A DNA stretch of 64,000 nucleotides from NCBI GenBank assembly GCA_963807605.1, contig CAWECG010000003.1:384001-448000 (forward strand), written 5' to 3'. A model generated the notes under the pieces. That model searched no databases. It was not told the origin of the DNA and saw only the letters and a list, made by a program, of their open reading frames with translations. A program made the position numbers and the translations under genes. Shown piece after piece: positions 36,078 through 63,309 of this stretch (position 1 is its first letter; each line of letters starts with the position of its first letter). Source of the stretch: Candidatus Bathyarchaeota archaeon (GTDB lineage Archaea; Thermoproteota; Bathyarchaeia; 40CM-2-53-6; RBG-13-38-9).

Positions 36078-37352
36078 TCATGGGCCTTTCATTATTACCC
36101 TTCCGTCAGGTAGTGTCATCATAGGTTCCCATCCTTCGTCTATGAACTTCTCGATTTCATCAACTCTTACAACTTTACGGGAGGAGTCTTTCTTTGAAGT
36201 GTCCTCGTTGCGGTTCTGACCCTGAGAGAGAACTTGCTGTCCTTTCTCGGTTACTAGCTGAGATACGAGATCTTCGAGCTGCCTTAGCCGCTCCTCCAAC
36301 TGTTGACGGGAAAGCTGAGACTCACGTCGGACCTCCTCAGCCTCAGAGATTGTTAGCAGAGGCACAGCCTTAAGATAGTCTTCCAGAAGGTCCTTCTCTA
36401 TCGGCCTATAGTAACTGTCGGATATGCCTGTTGAGTGACCCATCAAAGTCTCAACATTGATAGGCTTCATGACCTGCTCTGCCCTAGTTTTGAAGAACTT
36501 TCTTATTGAGTGAATGGAGAACTCATGTCTTCTCTTCTTCTCCTTTCGCAGTCCGAATTTCCAGAGCATATCCTCGAAGAGTCGCCTTACACCCCTGACC
36601 TGCAGCCTTCTTGGTTTGTTGATGTCGCCCTCGTGAAGGTTCTTTACTGTTTGCCATCTATCCCTAATCAACGGTGAATCTCCAGCTATTTTCTCTCCCT
36701 GAGAAGCACGCAACTGCACGTACTGCTCTAGCTTCCGATAGGCTTCAGGCGTTATGAATGTCTGGTACTCTTCTGATTCACCGGCATAGACACGAAGTTT
36801 TGCGGCAACAACCTTCCCATCCGTCTTTATGGGCTCCACATGCCCCCAGTTGAGATACTCCCACGCGCCGATCCTGATTCCACTGCTCGCCATGGTGAGA
36901 ATGATTGCTTGGAACCTCAGATCCGAGTTTGTTACAAGCAGTCTTAACTCATCAATGGTCGGTGCCCTGTCAAGCGCATATCTTCTTGCACTCGGCAAAA
37001 GTCGCGAAATCTTCTTCCAGTTTATCCCCGAGACATCATTCATCTCCAGGAGCAGCTTAACAGGCTTCTTCATATTGCCGACAGTGCTAGGCTCTATCTC
37101 CTTTCTGGATGCTCTCTCCTTTTCATTCAAGAGAAAACTAAGAATCTGATTCTGAGCCCAGCGGGAATTCTTCTTAGCCTTCCCAACAAAACTGTCAACA
37201 TCCATGCCAACATATTCTAGGAAAGTGGCAAGTCTCCGCTGGTAGATTTCGCGCGTAGTAGGGCTCTTGATAGCCTCAAGAAAAAGCTTCGAGGCTTTGC
37301 CCTCAAGTAAGGAAAGATCCTTGAGCTTCCTACCAGCTGGCAACTCAATCAA
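36078..37352 (-). CDS. tyrosine recombinase/integrase (next to tRNA 3' end)
   Basis: SSGIRIG (R), HSIRKFF, LMGH, SDSYY (Y). Confidence 0.9.
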   Translation of the reverse strand: MIELPAGRKLKDLSLLEGKASKLFLEAIKSPTTREIYQRRLATFLEYVGMDVDSFVGKAKKNSRWAQNQILSFLLNEKERASRKEIEPSTVGNMKKPVKLLLEMNDVSGINWKKISRLLPSARRYALDRAPTIDELRLLVTNSDLRFQAIILTMASSGIRIGAWEYLNWGHVEPIKTDGKVVAAKLRVYAGESEEYQTFITPEAYRKLEQYVQLRASQGEKIAGDSPLIRDRWQTVKNLHEGDINKPRRLQVRGVRRLFEDMLWKFGLRKEKKRRHEFSIHSIRKFFKTRAEQVMKPINVETLMGHSTGISDSYYRPIEKDLLEDYLKAVPLLTISEAEEVRRESQLSRQQLEERLRQLEDLVSQLVTEKGQQVLSQGQNRNEDTSKKDSSRKVVRVDEIEKFIDEGWEPMMTLPDGRVIMKGP

Positions 37353-37409: not shown

Positions 37410-37529
37410 TGGCGGGCCCGCCGGGAATTGAACCCGGGACCCCGACCCAGGACACACTTTGTGTCTCCTTCCGGGTGGCCTCCAAAGTCGTTAAAAGCCC
37501 GGTACTCTACCTGACTAAGCTACGGGCCC
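37410..37529 (-). tRNA. tRNA-Lys(UUU) with two introns (37/38: 37477-37491; 43/44: 37443-37470), CCA encoded
   Basis: GGGCCCG acceptor, CCGGG-CTTTTAA-CCCGG anticodon arm, GTTCAATTC T-loop. Removing the 15- and 28-nt BHB-bounded inserts gives a 77-nt cloverleaf. Confidence 0.92.
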
Positions 37530-37593
37530 GTCCTTATTGTCCCTAACTAATCCTTATATCTTTGTCTCTTCCATGTGTTTCTTTGGGTCAGGG

Positions 37594-38937
37594 ATGGTAA
37601 GGACAAGCTATAACCATGCTTTGGTTAAAAAAGCTTCACAACTTGTTGGTAGTAGTGAGGCGGTTAGGAAGTGGTATGATGAGATTTCATTCACAAAACA
37701 GCCTCGTACAAGCTGCGATTATGTCAATGAACTTGCATGTTTTTGTGAGGATGTTAAGAAGACGCCTGAACAGCTTCTCGAGTTAAATGCCAAACACGCT
37801 TATGAACTCATGAAAGGGTGGGCGGGTCAGAAGATTAGGTTAAAGGTATATTCTCTTAAGACTGTCCATGCTCGATGGTATGCTATTCGGAGTTTCTTCA
37901 AATTTCATGAGATCGAGATCAAAGACGATTTTCCAATCCCGCATATCCGAACTAAGTTTTCTGATAAGATACCTACACGAGAGGATCTTCGTCAGATTCT
38001 TAATGCTGCCTCCTTTTTTAACACAAAGATTGGTATCCAGCTTCTCGCTTATTCTGGAATTCGACCTGAAGACATTTGTGATTTGACCTATGCTTCAATA
38101 AAACATGATTTCGAGAAAGAGATCTATCCTTGCTCTGTGTACGTGGCGCAGGGCAAAACGGGTGATGTTTATGTTACCTTCATGCCTCGTCAGACTGTAG
38201 AGACAATCAAGCAATATTTTAAGTTGAGAACTAAAAAGGGTGAGAAGATCGAGGATAACACCCCACTTTTGCGATGCCAAAGAGGAAAAGAGGTTAGAGG
38301 CATTAGGCGGAGAACCTTAAGCCACAAGATTAGGGAGGTTCTATTAAAGAGTGGAGTGGAAATAAAGGTAGAAATCGGTGATAGAATCAGGCGGATGCGT
38401 CCTTATAGTCTCAGGAAGTACTTCAGAAGCAACCTCTCAAGTGAAATGCAGACCGAGTTCAGTGAAGCTCTGGTTGGACACATAACGGGTTTGGCTCAAA
38501 TTTACAATGGGATTAGAGACTTGGATCCTGCTGCAATTGAGAGAATGAGAACAGCCTACTCTAAAGCGGAGTCCTTCCTTCTCGCTGATGGTGTAAATAT
38601 AGAGGGTCTACAAGAGATGTCTAAGAAGCTCAAGAATAATGAGGAGGAGTTGGCGTCTATTCGTTCTGAACTAATAGAATATAAGAAAGAAGAACTACAA
38701 CGGACAAAGAGACACATGATTCAAGAACTTCAAAGATTTAAACAGATTTCCAAGACCGAGGAAGAATTCCTGTCCAACTTTGATGGTTACATAGAAGGTT
38801 ATATCGAGGGTATCAGAAATTTGGCTGCGCAGGAAAAACGACCGCTGAGCGAAAGGGAAATGGCGGAAATCGCGCTAATTCAGACTATCACTACAGAAAC
38901 AAAAAGGGCTGTGTTCCGTGCTACTCCCATGGTTTAA
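37594..38937 (+). CDS. tyrosine recombinase/integrase (next to tRNA 5' end)
   Basis: AYSGIRPED (R), QGKTG (K), YSLRKYF, LVGH, AQIY (Y). Confidence 0.9.
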   Translation: MVRTSYNHALVKKASQLVGSSEAVRKWYDEISFTKQPRTSCDYVNELACFCEDVKKTPEQLLELNAKHAYELMKGWAGQKIRLKVYSLKTVHARWYAIRSFFKFHEIEIKDDFPIPHIRTKFSDKIPTREDLRQILNAASFFNTKIGIQLLAYSGIRPEDICDLTYASIKHDFEKEIYPCSVYVAQGKTGDVYVTFMPRQTVETIKQYFKLRTKKGEKIEDNTPLLRCQRGKEVRGIRRRTLSHKIREVLLKSGVEIKVEIGDRIRRMRPYSLRKYFRSNLSSEMQTEFSEALVGHITGLAQIYNGIRDLDPAAIERMRTAYSKAESFLLADGVNIEGLQEMSKKLKNNEEELASIRSELIEYKKEELQRTKRHMIQELQRFKQISKTEEEFLSNFDGYIEGYIEGIRNLAAQEKRPLSEREMAEIALIQTITTETKRAVFRATPMV

Positions 38938-45155: not shown

Positions 45156-45179
45156 GTCGTCGTCGCTCACCAGCTATGG
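45156..45179 (+). repeat. GCTCACCAGCTA dispersed repeat
   Basis: gtcgtcgtcgctcaccagctatgg, starting 11 bp after a stop codon. Confidence 0.7.
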
Positions 45180-45347: not shown

Positions 45348-45905
45348 ATGGAAGACGAACAGGTGAAAGAACTAGTCTGCTATCAATGCGATCCAAAGGG
45401 CGTAAATCGGAAGATAGTGAAAGTTGAGCAAAACGAAGGCGATAAGATTCGCTACCTAGAATGCGGCCACAAGTCACGAATGTTCTTCCGTACCCTGTCT
45501 GATCGCGTAACTGTATCAGATTCATTTTTCACATCTCTAATCATCAACCCGCTCCCAGAGATTGAGCAGTCGCTCAAGAATCAGGATTACTTTAGGGCTG
45601 TAGCGTATCTTGCAGCAATGCTCGAATACTACGGAAAAGTTTCCATTGATGCGACACTCAGAGCACAAAATAGGAACATAGATAGTGATCGCCTCGACAG
45701 GTTTGGTTTGGAAGAAGTAGCGATTCTTCTCTACAGCTTTGATATAATCGACCAGCCTTGCTATTCGGCGGTCCTCAGACTTAGCAAGCTTCGCAATAGG
45801 CTTCTACACATCAAGGACATGGCTGAATTTCGGACAACTCTGGGAGTTGAAGCTGAGACAGCTGTAAAGAAAGGAATGGAATGTATTCGTGTTTTAATGA
45901 AGTGA
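45348..45905 (+). CDS. zinc-ribbon + HEPN-like protein
   Basis: CYQC...CGH; C-terminal LRNRLLH (RxxxxH). Confidence 0.6.
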   Translation: MEDEQVKELVCYQCDPKGVNRKIVKVEQNEGDKIRYLECGHKSRMFFRTLSDRVTVSDSFFTSLIINPLPEIEQSLKNQDYFRAVAYLAAMLEYYGKVSIDATLRAQNRNIDSDRLDRFGLEEVAILLYSFDIIDQPCYSAVLRLSKLRNRLLHIKDMAEFRTTLGVEAETAVKKGMECIRVLMK

Positions 45906-45962
45906 AATCAGAGTTCTAGGATGATCAAGAACTTTTATAGAGAGATCTTAGGGTTTTCGTCT

Positions 45963-45992
45963 TCGTCGCTCACCAGCTATGGCACACACACA
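45963..45992 (+). repeat. GCTCACCAGCTA dispersed repeat
   Basis: tcgtcgctcaccagctatggcacacacaca. Confidence 0.7.
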
Positions 45993-46064: not shown

Positions 46065-46799
46065 ATGATGAAGAGATATCCCCTCGCTGTTTCTGTCAAA
46101 CAGGTGATAGCGCGTATACAGATGCTTTTGGAACAATTTGAATCACCATTCAAGGCATCAGATCTTTATAAAATCAGAAGAGGAGTTATCACAACGAATA
46201 AGGACGAATCCATAGACTATGAAGCTGCTATCACATACCTAGATAAAACAAATCAGGTAAGAATACTCGAGAAGAAGGAACCCTTTGACGAGACCGTATT
46301 CGAACCTACAATAGACTTTGGTGTTTCAAGACCTACACTTCCGGTCGCATTGCCGACGGCTGCCAAAGGAAAAATAGCGTCTGATGCTGGGATGATGCTA
46401 GAAGCATACGCGGCTCTTTATGTTCTTGAGAACACACTCCGAGATTTTATTGAAGAAAGATTAAAGCAATCGTTTCAATCAGATTGGTGGCAAAAGGGGA
46501 TACCTGCAGCCGTCAACAAAAAAGTGGTTCAAAGAAAAGCAGACATACGGACAAGATGGCACCACATTGCAGTAGGTTCGCCTCTTATGATGACTGATTT
46601 TAATGATCTCGCCGGCATAATTAGTGTCAACTGGGTTGCCTTCAAGGAAACTATGGGTGATTTGGAACGGGTTAAGTCTGTTTTGGCTGAACTTGAAGTC
46701 CCCAGAAACATAGTTGCACACTGCAATCCGCTTGCTCCAGATGAGAAGACAAGACTCCTGCAAAACGTTCGGATTGTCATGAAATTGAGCGGTAGATAA
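46065..46799 (+). CDS. Swt1-like HEPN domain protein
   Basis: YAALYVLENTLRDFI, DWW, DFNDL..II..NW..F, RNIVAH. Confidence 0.82.
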   Translation: MMKRYPLAVSVKQVIARIQMLLEQFESPFKASDLYKIRRGVITTNKDESIDYEAAITYLDKTNQVRILEKKEPFDETVFEPTIDFGVSRPTLPVALPTAAKGKIASDAGMMLEAYAALYVLENTLRDFIEERLKQSFQSDWWQKGIPAAVNKKVVQRKADIRTRWHHIAVGSPLMMTDFNDLAGIISVNWVAFKETMGDLERVKSVLAELEVPRNIVAHCNPLAPDEKTRLLQNVRIVMKLSGR

Positions 46800-46832
46800 A
46801 CAGTTTTGCTGACGTAGCAAGCCTATCCATTT

Positions 46833-46875
46833 TGGTGGTGGTGCTCACCAGCTATGACCGACGACGACACACACA
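46833..46875 (+). repeat. GCTCACCAGCTA dispersed repeat
   Basis: tggtggtggtgctcaccagctatgaccgacgacgacacacaca. Confidence 0.7.
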
Positions 46876-47674
46876 ACCGTGGAGCATCCGGAAACGCTGA
46901 CATCATAACTACCGTGTAGCATACTGACGGAGCCAAGATCGAGATAGACTGGATTCTAGTCCGTAAGTTTGTTGATCCAGAACCCACTCACGGAAGCTGG
47001 GGAAGCGAAGAAGAACTATACAACTCTTCCCAGCAAGCCTAGCTTCTCAGCAGCTCTACACCTACTAGCGGAGGTTCTATGATTCAAGATAAAACTTGTC
47101 GTCTACTATGAGAACCATACCTCTCGGCCTTCCAGCATTGAGCTCATGTATCCTTGAAAAGTGGCGCCGCTGAGGCTAACTCTGCATGGGATGCAGAGCT
47201 CACAGTAGTCAACCCAGATGATGATATTGGAGAAACCTTTCAGGAAAGTCGAGAAAAAGGGAACAAAGAACGGCGGCACGAACACGGAATCATCGCGACA
47301 GCATCCTGGGGTGGACCTCTAGTCTTGAAAACCCTGTCATGCCCTGTTCCTTGAAATCTCCACATCCGTTGGTTGATGATCTCTACGTACAAAGACTTCC
47401 AGAGTGGTCATTGCAGAGCGTGATTACTCGATCAAGACGACGAGAATTCGAGGGCAAAAATCGCTTGAAAGCAGTTCTCATACATGCTGTTTCATATCAT
47501 TCGAGATGGCTACCTCAACTGTGAATGTCGTTCACCGAAAAACCGCTTCCGGGGCAGTCTTCCTAAACAGATTCCACGCATACTGGATCTGAAGACTTTT
47601 AAACAAAACGTAGCAATCTCGTTCGAGGATTCTCGACTAGTTTGGCACACTTCTCCGAGGGTTGAGGCACATAG

Positions 47675-47962
47675 ATGGCCTTAAACATTAGGGAAAAGGG
47701 TAGAGAGGCCTTGAATGAGCTTCTTGAGTTCGGTCTTTTTGTTCTCGTAGATACAGGGGCGTTGCTTATGATAGTCATGGCCCTTTGGATAGGCGAAGTG
47801 GCGGTGAGTTATCGCTATACTGAGACGTATCTAGTCTTTGAAGTGCTTCACCAAGCTTCATACGTGGGGCTCTTTCTCCCTTATTGTGCTTTGCTAGTAT
47901 TCGATGCCTACAAGTTTCTAATCCTCAGGAAGAGGAGATTGGCCCGTGAAGTTTGGACTTAG
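47675..47962 (+). CDS. small membrane protein
   Basis: Two hydrophobic helices; overlaps the start of tyrS. Confidence 0.55.
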   Translation: MALNIREKGREALNELLEFGLFVLVDTGALLMIVMALWIGEVAVSYRYTETYLVFEVLHQASYVGLFLPYCALLVFDAYKFLILRKRRLAREVWT

Positions 47963-49280
47963 GTCTTGGTCGACAATAGGAAAACTATTCAGCCGCAGGC
48001 AGTTAGCGTTCGTAGTCGTAGTCATAGGTCTGTATTTTCTCAGTGTTTCCATACTTTCCGTGCTAAAAGGAATAGTGTCGTTGACAGAATTTCTGTTGTT
48101 TCTTTCAGCATCAACTATCCTGATTCTGCTTGGAATACATGTCGGAAGGCATGAGAAATACAAATCTGCAATACGCGTTCCAGAATCGGATGTTAGGAAT
48201 AGGTTAGATCTCGTAACCAGAAATACTGAAGAGATCATAACTCAAGATGAACTAAGGAGTCTACTTGCTGTCAAGAAATGCCCTAAAGCATACTGGGGTT
48301 TTGAAGGTAAGAGCTTGATGCATCTAGGAATGGGACTCGTATGTGGAGGAAAGATCAAGGACTTGATAAGAGCTGGATTTGAGGTTACAATTTTTCTTGC
48401 CGATGTTCATTCTTGGATTAGCAATAAGTACCAAGGAGATATGAAAAAAATAAGAGCCTGCATCGAATACTTTGAGCATTGCTTCACCAGCCTTGGAATT
48501 TCGCCTCATGAAGTCAAGTATTTATGGACATCTGATTTAGCCAAAGACCCAAGTTACTGGAAGAGAGTCATAGAGGTAGGGAAAAACGCCTCTATTCGCA
48601 GAATACTGAGAGCGTTGCCAATAATGGATAGACAACTGGGGCAAGAAGACGTTGATGCAGCGGACGTATCGTATGTTTGCATGCAGGTAGCAGATGTATT
48701 CGAGGTGGGCGCGGATGTTGCATGTGGCGGATTGGATCAGAGAAAGGCTCACATGTTAGCCAGAGACATCGCTGATAAACTGAATTGGAGAAAACCAATC
48801 GCTCTACACGTACCTCTACTATTATCCTTAGATGAACCCAGACAATTCGGTGAAGTTTATGATGAAGACGAAAAAATAAGCAGACGTATAATGAACAAAA
48901 TGTCAAAAGAATCTCATGGAGGCATAATCTACATACATGATTCTCCTGAAGAAATAAGGAACAAGGTCCTTAACGCATACTGTCCGCCCAAGAAACTTGA
49001 GGACAATCCAGTAGTAGAAATAGTCAGACTTATCATATTCCCTGAAAGATCTACGTTTGAAGTAAAAAGACTGGACAAATATGGCGGAAACGTGATCTTG
49101 ACCAGCTTCGAGGAATTTGCAGAACTCTATCGTAACGGAAAAATTCATCCAATGGACCTCAAGAACAGTGTGGCAGAAAGTCTCACAGCAATGCTAAAGG
49201 GAGTCCGGGAATATTTTGAAAGAAACCCAGAGCCTCTGCTGACTATGCGAGAAGTTGAGGGACAACAGCAGGCGTCGTAA
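47946..49280 (+). CDS. tyrS: archaeal-type tyrosyl-tRNA synthetase with N-terminal 2-TM extension
   Basis: RNTEEIIT..EL, AYWGFE, HLGM (HIGH), FLADVHS, YVCMQVAD, GGLDQRKAH, KMSKE, AYCPP, IHPMDLK. Confidence 0.9.
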   Translation: MKFGLRSWSTIGKLFSRRQLAFVVVVIGLYFLSVSILSVLKGIVSLTEFLLFLSASTILILLGIHVGRHEKYKSAIRVPESDVRNRLDLVTRNTEEIITQDELRSLLAVKKCPKAYWGFEGKSLMHLGMGLVCGGKIKDLIRAGFEVTIFLADVHSWISNKYQGDMKKIRACIEYFEHCFTSLGISPHEVKYLWTSDLAKDPSYWKRVIEVGKNASIRRILRALPIMDRQLGQEDVDAADVSYVCMQVADVFEVGADVACGGLDQRKAHMLARDIADKLNWRKPIALHVPLLLSLDEPRQFGEVYDEDEKISRRIMNKMSKESHGGIIYIHDSPEEIRNKVLNAYCPPKKLEDNPVVEIVRLIIFPERSTFEVKRLDKYGGNVILTSFEEFAELYRNGKIHPMDLKNSVAESLTAMLKGVREYFERNPEPLLTMREVEGQQQAS

Positions 49281-49464: not shown

Positions 49465-50781
49465 TTGAGTAATAAGAAAGCGGATCCTCCCTTCTTTCAC
49501 GTGGATCCGGAGTACAGCTCAATTCTTCCACCTCTTTCGGAACCCGAATGTGAGGCCCTGAAGCGATCAATAAGGGAAGATGGGATGCTCTTCCCAATCA
49601 TCGCAAACAAACATGGAATAGTGCTGGATGGGCATAACCGGCTGAAGGTTTGTCGTGAACTCGGAATAAAGCCGCGGTTCGAGGTAAGAGATTTCTCCAA
49701 CGACCGGCTCCAAGAGAAGAAATTCGTAATCGTTTCAAACCTCAGGAGACATCACCTGAACGATTTCCAGAAGATCGAGCTCTCCCAACCGCTTCTGAGC
49801 ATGCAGCGTCTTCTTGCCAAGCAAAGAAAGATTCGTGCAGGAAGATCGTTCGGGAGGGGAAGAAAGGGTAGGTTGCTGCCAAATGGCAGTAAGCTATCGC
49901 AGGGGGAGGCTGTGGAGAAAGTAGCTCGTGAAATAGGCGTCTCCCCGAGAACTTACTACCGCGCTCTCTCCATCATTGAAAAGAAGCCTGAGGAGGTCAA
50001 GCACAAACTGAGAGAGGGGAAGATTGAAATCAATACAGCTTACGCAAATCTCCAATCTGAAGAAAGGCGAAAGGAGCTCATAGCTCTCTCAAACAAGCCG
50101 CTGCCCAAGCTTGTCAAGATCTTGTGCGGCGATTACAGAAAGCTCTGGCCCAATCATATCAAGGAGGGTACAGCTGACATCATCTTCACGGATCCACAGT
50201 ATGGCATGAGTCTAGGAAAGAAGAAAGCAGGATGCTCCAGTAGTCTGGAAGCCCTCACACGACTGTGGGACGATCTGGGCGAGTTCTCGAATAAGGTTCT
50301 GAAAGAAGGGGGATATCTTTTTGCATACACGGGGCAGGAGTATTCCCATCTCGCTGAAACACGCTTGAGGACGCACCTCTGTCAGTATTGGAGGATAACT
50401 ATTGCATACGAATCAAACCAGTCCCAGCTATTTCACAAAAAGATCAGGAACCGCTGCAAGCAAATCCTAGTCTTCGCAAAGGGAAAGGGTCGTGAACACG
50501 AGTGGATATTTGACATGCTGCACGGCGGAGGAAAAGGTGACAAGCAAGCCCACGAGTGGGCGCAGCCGGAGACGGAGGCACTCTATCTGATCCAGAAGTT
50601 CACCAAGCCCAACGAACTTGTTGTTGACCCAATGTGTGGTAGCGCTTCCGTACTCAAGGCCGCAGTTCGTCTGCGCCGCAAAACGGTAGGATTTGAGATC
50701 AACAAGGAGACATACAGGATAGGACTGGGAAGACTGAGCGAAGTGGTCTGGAAGGGCAAAGAAGGGGCCCCCTTTTTGTGA
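49465..50781 (+). CDS. ParB-like N-domain fused to a DNA amino-methyltransferase
   Basis: VLDGHNRL, NLRRHHL; IFTDPQY (motif IV) before VVDPMCGS (motif I). Confidence 0.85.
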   Translation: MSNKKADPPFFHVDPEYSSILPPLSEPECEALKRSIREDGMLFPIIANKHGIVLDGHNRLKVCRELGIKPRFEVRDFSNDRLQEKKFVIVSNLRRHHLNDFQKIELSQPLLSMQRLLAKQRKIRAGRSFGRGRKGRLLPNGSKLSQGEAVEKVAREIGVSPRTYYRALSIIEKKPEEVKHKLREGKIEINTAYANLQSEERRKELIALSNKPLPKLVKILCGDYRKLWPNHIKEGTADIIFTDPQYGMSLGKKKAGCSSSLEALTRLWDDLGEFSNKVLKEGGYLFAYTGQEYSHLAETRLRTHLCQYWRITIAYESNQSQLFHKKIRNRCKQILVFAKGKGREHEWIFDMLHGGGKGDKQAHEWAQPETEALYLIQKFTKPNELVVDPMCGSASVLKAAVRLRRKTVGFEINKETYRIGLGRLSEVVWKGKEGAPFL

Positions 50782-61923: not shown

Positions 61924-63309
61924 TTAGTTTTTCTTGGCCCTAATGACGAGAAATGTAGGCATAACTCTTCTAGCTCGAGCAATTCTTGGCGGAATAGACT
62001 TATCCAACGGCTCTGGTTCATCAAATCCCTCCATGGTAAATCCAAATTTCAACAAGGTGTTTACATATGATTTTAGAGGCCTATGGTAGACCGAAACTCT
62101 GACATGTTTTCCATTTAGTTTCCAACTCTCCACGTATTTTCTCTCCAAAAAATAGTCCTTCCAGATGCTTGGTAACTCGGCCTTGCTCTTGCTAGGAAAC
62201 AACATATCTTCGAAATTTGTCTTCAGAGGATGTGGCAGGGACATTACTAAGATTCCCCCATGTTTAAGAACTCTGAAGAATTCTCTAATCGTTGATTTGT
62301 AATCTCCAACATTGTCAAGTAGAAATCCGGCCGTTATCATATCGAACGACTCATCCTTGAAACCTAGTGAACTGCTATCAAGACGAAGAAGGTTTCCGCT
62401 TCGTTTACCGATAACTTTCTTGGCATAGGCCAACATATTTGAGGATATGTCAAAGCCGGTGACTTCAAAGCCCATATGAAGTAGTCTGTCGGCATAAAAC
62501 CCTCCACCGCATCCCGCGTCGAGTGCTCTGACGCCCCTATAAGAATCTATAAGATTAATTACAGCTGGCAATTCCATTAGTCGACTAAGAGAGTTCTCTG
62601 ATCTATATGCACAGTACTGGTTAGCTACTTCATCCCATGTATCAGATTCGAGGTCGCTTAGTAAAGAGACGAACCATGTGGGCGGATTTTTGATGTGATC
62701 AAGTATGTAGCTTCTTCTTCTGAGGATCCTTTTATGCACCTTGGGCATTGATCTAATTAGTCTTTCAAGCCTATCTACGGACGGGATATTCGAAGTCAAT
62801 AGTTTTGAGAGGTCGGAAAGATGTTTCTTGTTTTCGGCTCTTGTAGCTCCGCGGGCAAATATCATTTTCATTACAACTAGATGCTCAATAGGAGGAATGT
62901 GTAATTGCATAGATCCGAGGTTACAAATGAACGGCTCTTTTATCAGATGTCTAAGGGGATACCGAATTTCGATTCGCTTATAGGAGTCGTCAAGTATTTT
63001 TAATTCATCAATCACCAAATGCAGTTTCTGAATATCGGAGTCAATATATCTCACAAAAGCAAAGTGCGTATTCCTCGGTTCACCACGGAGATGTCCCTCC
63101 TTGAAACCTATTTCCTTTAAAAGGAATCTGACAGAATCTATATCTTGAAGTCTGCACACCAAGTCCAAATCAGCGATGCTTCGCCTTTTGACGAAACAGC
63201 TGGCTGCTAATCCGCCTATCCATAGATGCTCTATACCACTGTTTCCTATGTGCATAACGACCTCTTGAACAGCGCGTGTGCGTGTAGTTGAGCGCAATTT
63301 TGCGCTCAC
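61924..63309 (-). CDS. nucleotidyltransferase domain fused to a class I SAM methyltransferase
   Basis: IGGLA...DLDL, KHLSD; LDAGCGGG, GFDIS, FDMI, RVLKHGG. Confidence 0.8.
   Translation of the reverse strand: MSAKLRSTTRTRAVQEVVMHIGNSGIEHLWIGGLAASCFVKRRSIADLDLVCRLQDIDSVRFLLKEIGFKEGHLRGEPRNTHFAFVRYIDSDIQKLHLVIDELKILDDSYKRIEIRYPLRHLIKEPFICNLGSMQLHIPPIEHLVVMKMIFARGATRAENKKHLSDLSKLLTSNIPSVDRLERLIRSMPKVHKRILRRRSYILDHIKNPPTWFVSLLSDLESDTWDEVANQYCAYRSENSLSRLMELPAVINLIDSYRGVRALDAGCGGGFYADRLLHMGFEVTGFDISSNMLAYAKKVIGKRSGNLLRLDSSSLGFKDESFDMITAGFLLDNVGDYKSTIREFFRVLKHGGILVMSLPHPLKTNFEDMLFPSKSKAELPSIWKDYFLERKYVESWKLNGKHVRVSVYHRPLKSYVNTLLKFGFTMEGFDEPEPLDKSIPPRIARARRVMPTFLVIRAKKN

Follow-up and report, generated by a model that had tools for sequence, protein, structure and literature searches.

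A second tyrosyl-tRNA synthetase gene with a predicted two-helix N-terminal extension on an accessory island of a Bathyarchaeota archaeon

A stretch of 64,000 nucleotides from Candidatus Bathyarchaeota archaeon (assembly GCA_963807605.1, contig CAWECG010000003.1, positions 384,001 to 448,000), referred to here as the window and numbered from its first letter, carries a second gene for tyrosyl-tRNA synthetase (TyrRS) in which a complete archaeal enzyme is preceded, in frame, by 80 codons predicted to encode two transmembrane (TM) helices. This gene, termed the paralog, lies in an accessory island of a 2.65 Mb genome (5 contigs) that also holds an ordinary housekeeping tyrS. The explanation favoured here is that it encodes a membrane-tethered and probably active spare TyrRS, a proposal for which we judge the chances of being right and of being wrong to be evenly balanced.

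The synthetase core and its hydrophobic extension

The gene, and the small open reading frame (ORF) that precedes it, comprise the following elements.

47675-47962, + strand: orphan ORF of 95 aa with two hydrophobic helices (aa ~19-41 and ~63-84) and a basic C-terminus
47932-47937, + strand: Shine-Dalgarno (SD)-like GAGGAG, 14 to 9 nt 5' of the GTG start (sequence)
47946-49280, + strand: TM-extended TyrRS ORF of 444 aa, from GTG (47946) to TAA (49280)
47946-48185, + strand: 80-codon N-terminal extension, residues 1-80 (hydropathy, AlphaFold2, codon usage)
48003-48065, + strand: predicted TM1, aa ~20-40 (Kyte-Doolittle)
48081-48146, + strand: predicted TM2, aa ~46-67, after a short loop (Kyte-Doolittle)
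48186-48188, + strand: TCG (Ser81), where ordinary TyrRSs have their start Met (alignment)
48186-49280, + strand: complete archaeal-type TyrRS core, aa 81-444, including the stop codon (profile matches, alignments)
48306-48314, + strand: tripeptide G121-K122-S123, C-S-G in relatives, directly 5' of the HIGH-type motif
48321-48332, + strand: HIGH-type motif H126-L-G-M129, the same as the lineage form
48897-48911, + strand: KMSKE in place of KMSKS, aa 318-322 (sequence and alignment)

Downstream of the extension lies the full archaeal TyrRS that an earlier note on this DNA had read there, composed of a Rossmann catalytic domain and a C-terminal anticodon-binding domain. The NCBIfam equivalog for archaeal tyrosine--tRNA ligase (NF006330) matches it at full length over residues 82-435 with 386 bits against a cut-off of 220, and the Pfam family PF00579 matches residues 113-418 (E 1.4e-37). 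The closest solved structures are the TyrRSs 2CYC of P. horikoshii (E 2e-84) and 2CYA of A. pernix (E 1e-82), with alignments extending to paralog residue 437-439, while the closest named proteins are from Bathyarchaeia. In an AlphaFold2 model the predicted local distance difference test (pLDDT) of the core is mostly >90.

All family-invariant positions are retained, across the tyrosine pocket, the HIGH-type motif, the K-M-S-K part of the signature loop and the anticodon-binding region. The pocket residues Y116, Y243, Q247, D250 and Q265, which we take to correspond to Y32, Y151, Q155, D158 and Q173 of M. jannaschii, form invariant columns in an alignment of 63 sequences, the paralog included, which upholds the earlier description of an intact pocket; the same is true of H126, G128, M319 and K321 and, in the anticodon-binding domain, of H401, D404 and K406. 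As every family-invariant position that contacts tyrosine, ATP or the anticodon is kept, the core has probably retained the ability to bind Tyr, ATP and tRNA-Tyr and to make Tyr-tRNA-Tyr. Two signature loops have nonetheless changed, each at positions where no fewer than 97% of relatives agree: C-S-G has become G-K-S, and KMSKS reads KMSKE, as had been noticed before, E322 replacing a Ser shared by at least 97% of the 114 relatives compared. G-K-S and the Glu of KMSKE sit in the two ATP-handling loops of class I synthetases, so that altered kinetics or inhibitor sensitivity is plausible, and the paralog may differ from ordinary TyrRS in one or the other.

The G-K-S tripeptide lies exactly on the 5' side of a site that carries an insert elsewhere. 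In the tyrS of several other Bathyarchaeia families (e.g. G036:C9:16900-17300), 20-35 nt that can form a hairpin and contain stop codons sit directly after the Y-W-G-F-E-C-S-G codons, with the frame resuming at (L/M)-M-H-I-G-M-G, and this insert looks like an mRNA intron of the bulge-helix-bulge (BHB) type. Imprecise intron loss is a conceivable source of G-K-S, although the sister clade of the paralog (see below) is without the insert.

Codon 81 (TCG) aligns with Met1 of the housekeeping TyrRS of the same genome and of all close homologs, so that a serine codon does occupy the usual start position, as the earlier note had stated. The 80 codons before it, which that note had also described as an in-frame extension with two TM helices, contain two 19-residue Kyte-Doolittle windows of at least 2.0 (aa ~20-40 and ~46-67) and are modelled by AlphaFold2 as two long helices (17-41 and 46-72). 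Of the 3,440 open frames in the same genome that span 80-110 codons, only 0.7% contain two comparable hydrophobic windows. The codon-usage score of the extension is 0.077 per codon in frame and -1.67 and -0.45 in the other frames, where real genes score a mean of 0.164 in frame (5th percentile 0.040) and a mean of -0.92 off-frame. Some 88 stop-free codons lie 5' of codon 81, for which P is estimated at ~0.01 at this composition; across the genome, SD cores are most frequent at -12/-13 when counted from the first ATG of long ORFs.

Candidate starts in frame are GTG 47946, GTG 48060, GTG 48075, TTG 48081 and TTG 48096. Between 48097 and 48314 there is no in-frame ATG, GTG or TTG, and the next ones, TTG 48315 and ATG 48318, would remove the strand bearing the Tyr-binding Y116. 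Because that interval offers no start, a whole-core product carries at least TM2, and any product with a complete catalytic core must, on this reading of the sequence, include at least one TM helix. Together with the position of the SD-like element, the codon usage and the rarity of such hydrophobic windows, the layout of start codons suggests that the extension is probably translated. A public Logan contig of 186 nt, from a freshwater sediment metagenome DNA run (share 0.07) and possibly from the source sample of the window itself, spans 47780-47965 only and is identical to it across the gene junction; owing to this exact match, the junction is not an indel artefact of the present assembly.

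No Pfam or NCBIfam family matches within residues 1-80, and an atlas feature search with the extension gave no usable match. Derivation from the 3' end of pgk, the gene that precedes tyrS in the sister clade, was ruled out, there being neither protein nor DNA similarity.

The two-helix gene reported upstream overlaps as described, the end of the 95-aa ORF extending 17 nt past the GTG start of the TyrRS gene. Its codon-usage score of 0.133 per codon falls in the range of real genes. It has no match in Pfam, NCBIfam, PADLOC or PHROG; atlas matches to unnamed clusters (score 0.89) are leads only, and a complex prediction with TyrRS residues 1-85 scored 0.00, which weighs neither way.

Copy number, origin and selection

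A search of the whole genome with PF00579 returned three genes, namely the paralog, a TyrRS of 362 aa and a tryptophanyl-tRNA synthetase (TrpRS) of 401 aa. The 362-aa protein is the product of a separate housekeeping tyrS on contig C1, with an intact KMSKS and 54% identity to the paralog, so the island gene is a second TyrRS, as had been supposed, and not the only one. A single tRNA-Tyr(GTA) is found in the genome by ARAGORN, outside the window. Compared with the housekeeping TyrRSs of Bathyarchaeia, the paralog is collinear over residues 81-444, keeps the substrate and anticodon contacts and has the same H-L-G-M; it differs in the 80-aa TM extension that replaces Met1, in 12 near-invariant changes, in its C-terminal end, in its very long branch and in its location on an island rather than beside pgk.

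Each of 40 close relatives has tyrS in single copy, and a sample of 300 further Bathyarchaeia genomes contains no divergent second TyrRS. Other double matches in that sample are genes split between contigs or, in genome G205, near-identical tandem copies. The G205 pair (C22:25500-30653) consists of two tandem tyrS that differ by one residue and have no TM extension, beside gap/GAPDH at a contig end, and is best read as a recent duplication or an assembly artefact. The TM extension is absent from all of the 120 best TyrRS homologs. Six of these with longer N-termini, P0051 (447 aa), P0086, P0020, P0039, P0085 and P0096, were rejected as TM-extended candidates, their N-termini being non-hydrophobic and having the look of over-called starts.

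In a tree built by IQ-TREE quick search under LG+C20 from 124 rows of Bathyarchaeia TyrRS, the paralog is sister, with SH-aLRT 99, to a clade (g4/g7) made up of the housekeeping tyrS of two other genera of the same family and of metagenomic relatives, its exact placement being less certain because its terminal branch is the longest of all. The host's own tyrS is placed in a different clade, and P0002 and P0003, which come closest to the paralog at 59-60% identity, are pgk-linked tyrS of the ordinary kind. Given that it groups with the tyrS of other genera while the host gene lies elsewhere, the paralog is xenologous and not a recent duplicate of the resident gene, and it was probably acquired by horizontal transfer.

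The 364-codon frame of the core is intact at a divergence of at least 40%, and in neutral simulations that started from the sister gene at most 1% of trials remained stop-free at 20-40% amino-acid divergence. Substitutions are also unevenly spread: among columns conserved to 97% or more, the paralog departs from its relatives at 12-15%, as against 51-60% of the other columns, a roughly fourfold sparing. Since it has kept its reading frame and changed so much less at conserved sites, the core appears to be under purifying selection and not decaying, that is, not a pseudogene, although it would work differently or less stringently than its relatives.

Possible function and competing explanations

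In the explanation preferred here, a second tyrS arrived by horizontal transfer, resides on an integrated mobile or defence island and has lost its own start codon. It would be expressed together with the 95-aa two-helix ORF, in a small unit of two genes in which it comes second, its translation most likely starting at the SD-preceded GTG 47946 and being coupled to the end of that ORF. The extension would thereby add a helical hairpin of N-in/C-in topology. Basic residues lie N-terminal of the hairpin (K2, R6, K13, R17, R18) as well as in the linker C-terminal of it (aa 68-80; R68, K71, K73, R77) and, with both flanks basic, the positive-inside rule would put the TyrRS domain on the cytoplasmic face. 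By the usual logic of transferred aminoacyl-tRNA synthetase (aaRS) paralogs, the tethered, element-borne enzyme could be a spare that keeps tRNA-Tyr charging going, or insulates it, when the host enzyme is compromised. A bolder reading is that the two-gene unit makes a functional membrane-tethered dimeric class I synthetase that serves the mobile element in conflicts with its host or viruses, for instance through toxin-insensitive or spatially insulated charging of tRNA-Tyr together with the 95-aa membrane partner; this we entertain only tentatively.

Membrane-anchored aaRSs are active in cyanobacteria, where a two-helix CAAD domain related to CURT1 anchors ValRS, IleRS, LeuRS, GluRS, ArgRS, MetRS and CysRS to the thylakoid, and where their function has been reported as unknown (PMC4893482). 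The CAAD module of GluRS was gained through fusion with a neighbouring gene for a small membrane protein and, according to the same authors, CAAD is confined to cyanobacteria and to monomeric class I aaRSs and was never seen in TyrRS or TrpRS, which are dimeric (PMC4893482). The paralog shares with these proteins the joining of a complete class I aaRS to a predicted two-TM-helix module. Their module is internal or C-terminal, homologous to CURT1 and kept in many species, whereas here an N-terminal orphan module is attached to a dimeric aaRS, in an archaeon and in a second copy. The paralog thus resembles the CAAD design but is not a member of the CAAD family, because it lacks CAAD homology, carries its module at the N-terminus and is a dimeric enzyme.

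Divergent aaRS paralogs gained by transfer often serve as resistant spares when the housekeeping enzyme is inhibited. TyrRS is among the targets of natural toxins, and resistant aaRS paralogs spread by horizontal gene transfer (PMC5388404). Like the resistant paralogs mupA/IleRS2, TrpRS, MetRS and SerRS, the present gene is a foreign, diverged extra copy that lies on mobile DNA and is altered near its active site. Those enzymes, however, are soluble, recur across strains and often lie in or near a biosynthetic cluster, none of which is seen for the paralog. Inhibitor-resistant paralogs are the closest functional analogy, yet one that leaves the anchor unexplained.

A number of observations weigh against a functional tethered spare. 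TyrRS is an obligate dimer, and the extension itself is modelled with a pLDDT of only 55-78. As the work on CAAD notes, dimeric aaRSs have never been seen anchored to membranes (PMC4893482). Other TM-TyrRS fusions, whose absence the earlier note had named, together with a sole tyrS, as a ground against its reading, did not materialise, although the sole-tyrS ground does not apply: no homologous fusion exists among 1.84 billion representatives, which makes the fusion a single event without evolutionary replication, and homolog and genome searches found no second genome with this arrangement. An exhaustive HMMER search of the same representatives with residues 1-85 returned no homolog of the extension other than itself, and the 95-aa ORF found itself alone among 5.8 billion clusters. 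ARAGORN detects no second tRNA-Tyr in the genome, and no inhibitor-biosynthesis gene was recognised among the neighbours scanned, the window not having been searched systematically. The terminal branch of the paralog measures 0.77 changes per site, where the median is 0.097. At 12 of 103 near-invariant columns (at least 97% conserved in 114 relatives) the paralog has changed (S122K, G123S, W154V, N159S, L162Y, G173I, E206K, G228D, P244V, I251V, S322E and L403M), where the relatives have a mean of 0.74 such changes and a maximum of 5; loss of the Gly before the HIGH-type motif, together with a Glu in the KMSKS loop, could impair adenylation.

Much of this would suit a captured tyrS copy on its way out, whose hydrophobic upstream frame is a by-product that is weakly or not translated, and which makes no present contribution or is translated only from ATG 48318 or 48330, into a protein shortened at its N-terminus: the gene is a singleton, extension and 95-aa ORF are both orphans, and the longest branch of the tree comes with changes in both catalytic loops. 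We nevertheless consider such a copy rather unlikely, as the core frame has stayed open and its conserved columns have been spared, the extension is free of stops over 88 codons, uses codons as real genes do and has an SD-like element at a suitable distance, and initiation at M125 or M129 would cost the enzyme its Y116 strand. Less probable still is a dedicated component of a conflict system, whether between element and host or between virus and host, in which the protein would be an inhibitor-resistant TyrRS giving immunity to a toxin, a sink for tRNA-Tyr, or a heterodimer partner pulling the host TyrRS to the membrane. Its setting among HEPN, TIR, SocA/Panacea, methylase and HNH genes, next to integrases, speaks for this, as do active-site-loop changes of the kind known from resistant aaRS paralogs and the existence both of natural TyrRS toxins and of resistant aaRS paralogs that spread horizontally (PMC5388404). 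Yet no PADLOC model matches the TyrRS or the 95-aa ORF, no toxin-biosynthesis genes were recognised nearby, a similar gene is found on no other island, and a neighbourhood alone is weak evidence; the role in tRNA-targeting conflict that the earlier note had raised likewise has only the neighbourhood behind it.

The same note had proposed modification of lipids or surface molecules. A repurposed enzyme of this sort would make Tyr-AMP or Tyr-tRNA at the membrane for transfer, as with MprF or LysX, onto lipids, surface polymers or small molecules, and a membrane anchor with a small membrane partner, and catalytic loops altered around an intact Tyr pocket, are compatible with it. In the LysX or MprF-LysRS fusions of actinobacteria, a large MprF flippase/synthase domain accompanies the synthetase and the aminoacyl-tRNA is used for lipid modification. 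The likeness lies in a second-copy aaRS joined to membrane-spanning segments, the difference in the MprF domain, which neither the paralog nor its neighbours possess. No transferase domain, MprF/DUF2156-like or other, occurs in the protein, the 95-aa ORF or adjacent genes, the predicted topology keeps the enzyme inside the cell with nothing to carry a product across, and the anticodon-binding domain is kept in full, pointing to ordinary use of tRNA; we regard this alternative as highly improbable.

Should the tethered TyrRS be functional, it would be without precedent as a membrane-anchored TyrRS and, among archaea, as a membrane-anchored aaRS of any kind. An island-borne, dimeric archaeal TyrRS with a TM hairpin would represent an independent origin of the anchored design of cyanobacteria, and also an essential gene that was captured and given a new N-terminus by orphan sequence. 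If active, it would provide a simple system for asking what membrane tethering of a synthetase achieves, and whether spare translation enzymes travel on the mobile elements of sediment archaea for use in conflict. As a single occurrence, the finding carries limited weight.

The surrounding island

The features that define the region around the TyrRS gene are these.

36078-37352, - strand: tyrosine-recombinase gene flanking the tRNA-Lys
37413-37529, - strand: intron-bearing tRNA-Lys(UUU), 117 nt (Rfam, ARAGORN with intron option)
37537-38937, + strand: tyrosine-recombinase gene flanking the tRNA-Lys, divergently oriented to the other
45348-45905, + strand: HEPN-type gene with an R-x4-H motif and no Pfam match
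46065-46799, + strand: Swt1-like HEPN gene (PF18731 HEPN_Swt1, E 2.9e-15; candidate defence family PDC-M34B)
49465-50781, + strand: ParB-like N-terminal domain fused to an N6/N4 DNA methyltransferase, directly 3' of the TyrRS gene
61924-63309, - strand: gene with a methyltransferase domain

The tRNA-Lys(UUU) gene, which ARAGORN missed when run without the intron option, has two inserts, one after the anticodon loop and one before the T-arm, and with its two integrases it likely forms the attachment region of one or more integrated elements. Downstream of it follow genes for a TPR protein, a membrane protein, two HEPN proteins, the TM-TyrRS pair and the ParB-methylase, as well as for a SocA/Panacea-domain protein, an RNase-H-like protein, an HNH nuclease and a TIR protein. 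The fusion of ParB with an N6/N4 methyltransferase is typical of mobile elements or phages. GC content is ~44% in the window against 47% in the genome. No convincing att-type direct repeats of the tRNA were found, and DNA synteny with relatives is too diverged to fix the island borders. The term accessory island, used before for this region, is on this evidence a fair description, and the HEPN genes mentioned with it are present, one matching PF18731 and the other carrying R-x4-H.

A short repeat stands 3' of each of three genes that lie upstream of the TyrRS gene and share one direction, namely the TM protein gene and the two HEPN genes (45156-45179, 45959-45982 and 46834-46857), and is absent 3' of the TyrRS gene. 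Part of it (46813-46877) matches short sequences scattered genome-wide. At least one of these falls on a copy of an ~80-nt dispersed repeat, the one that is also seen at 2110-2220 of the window.

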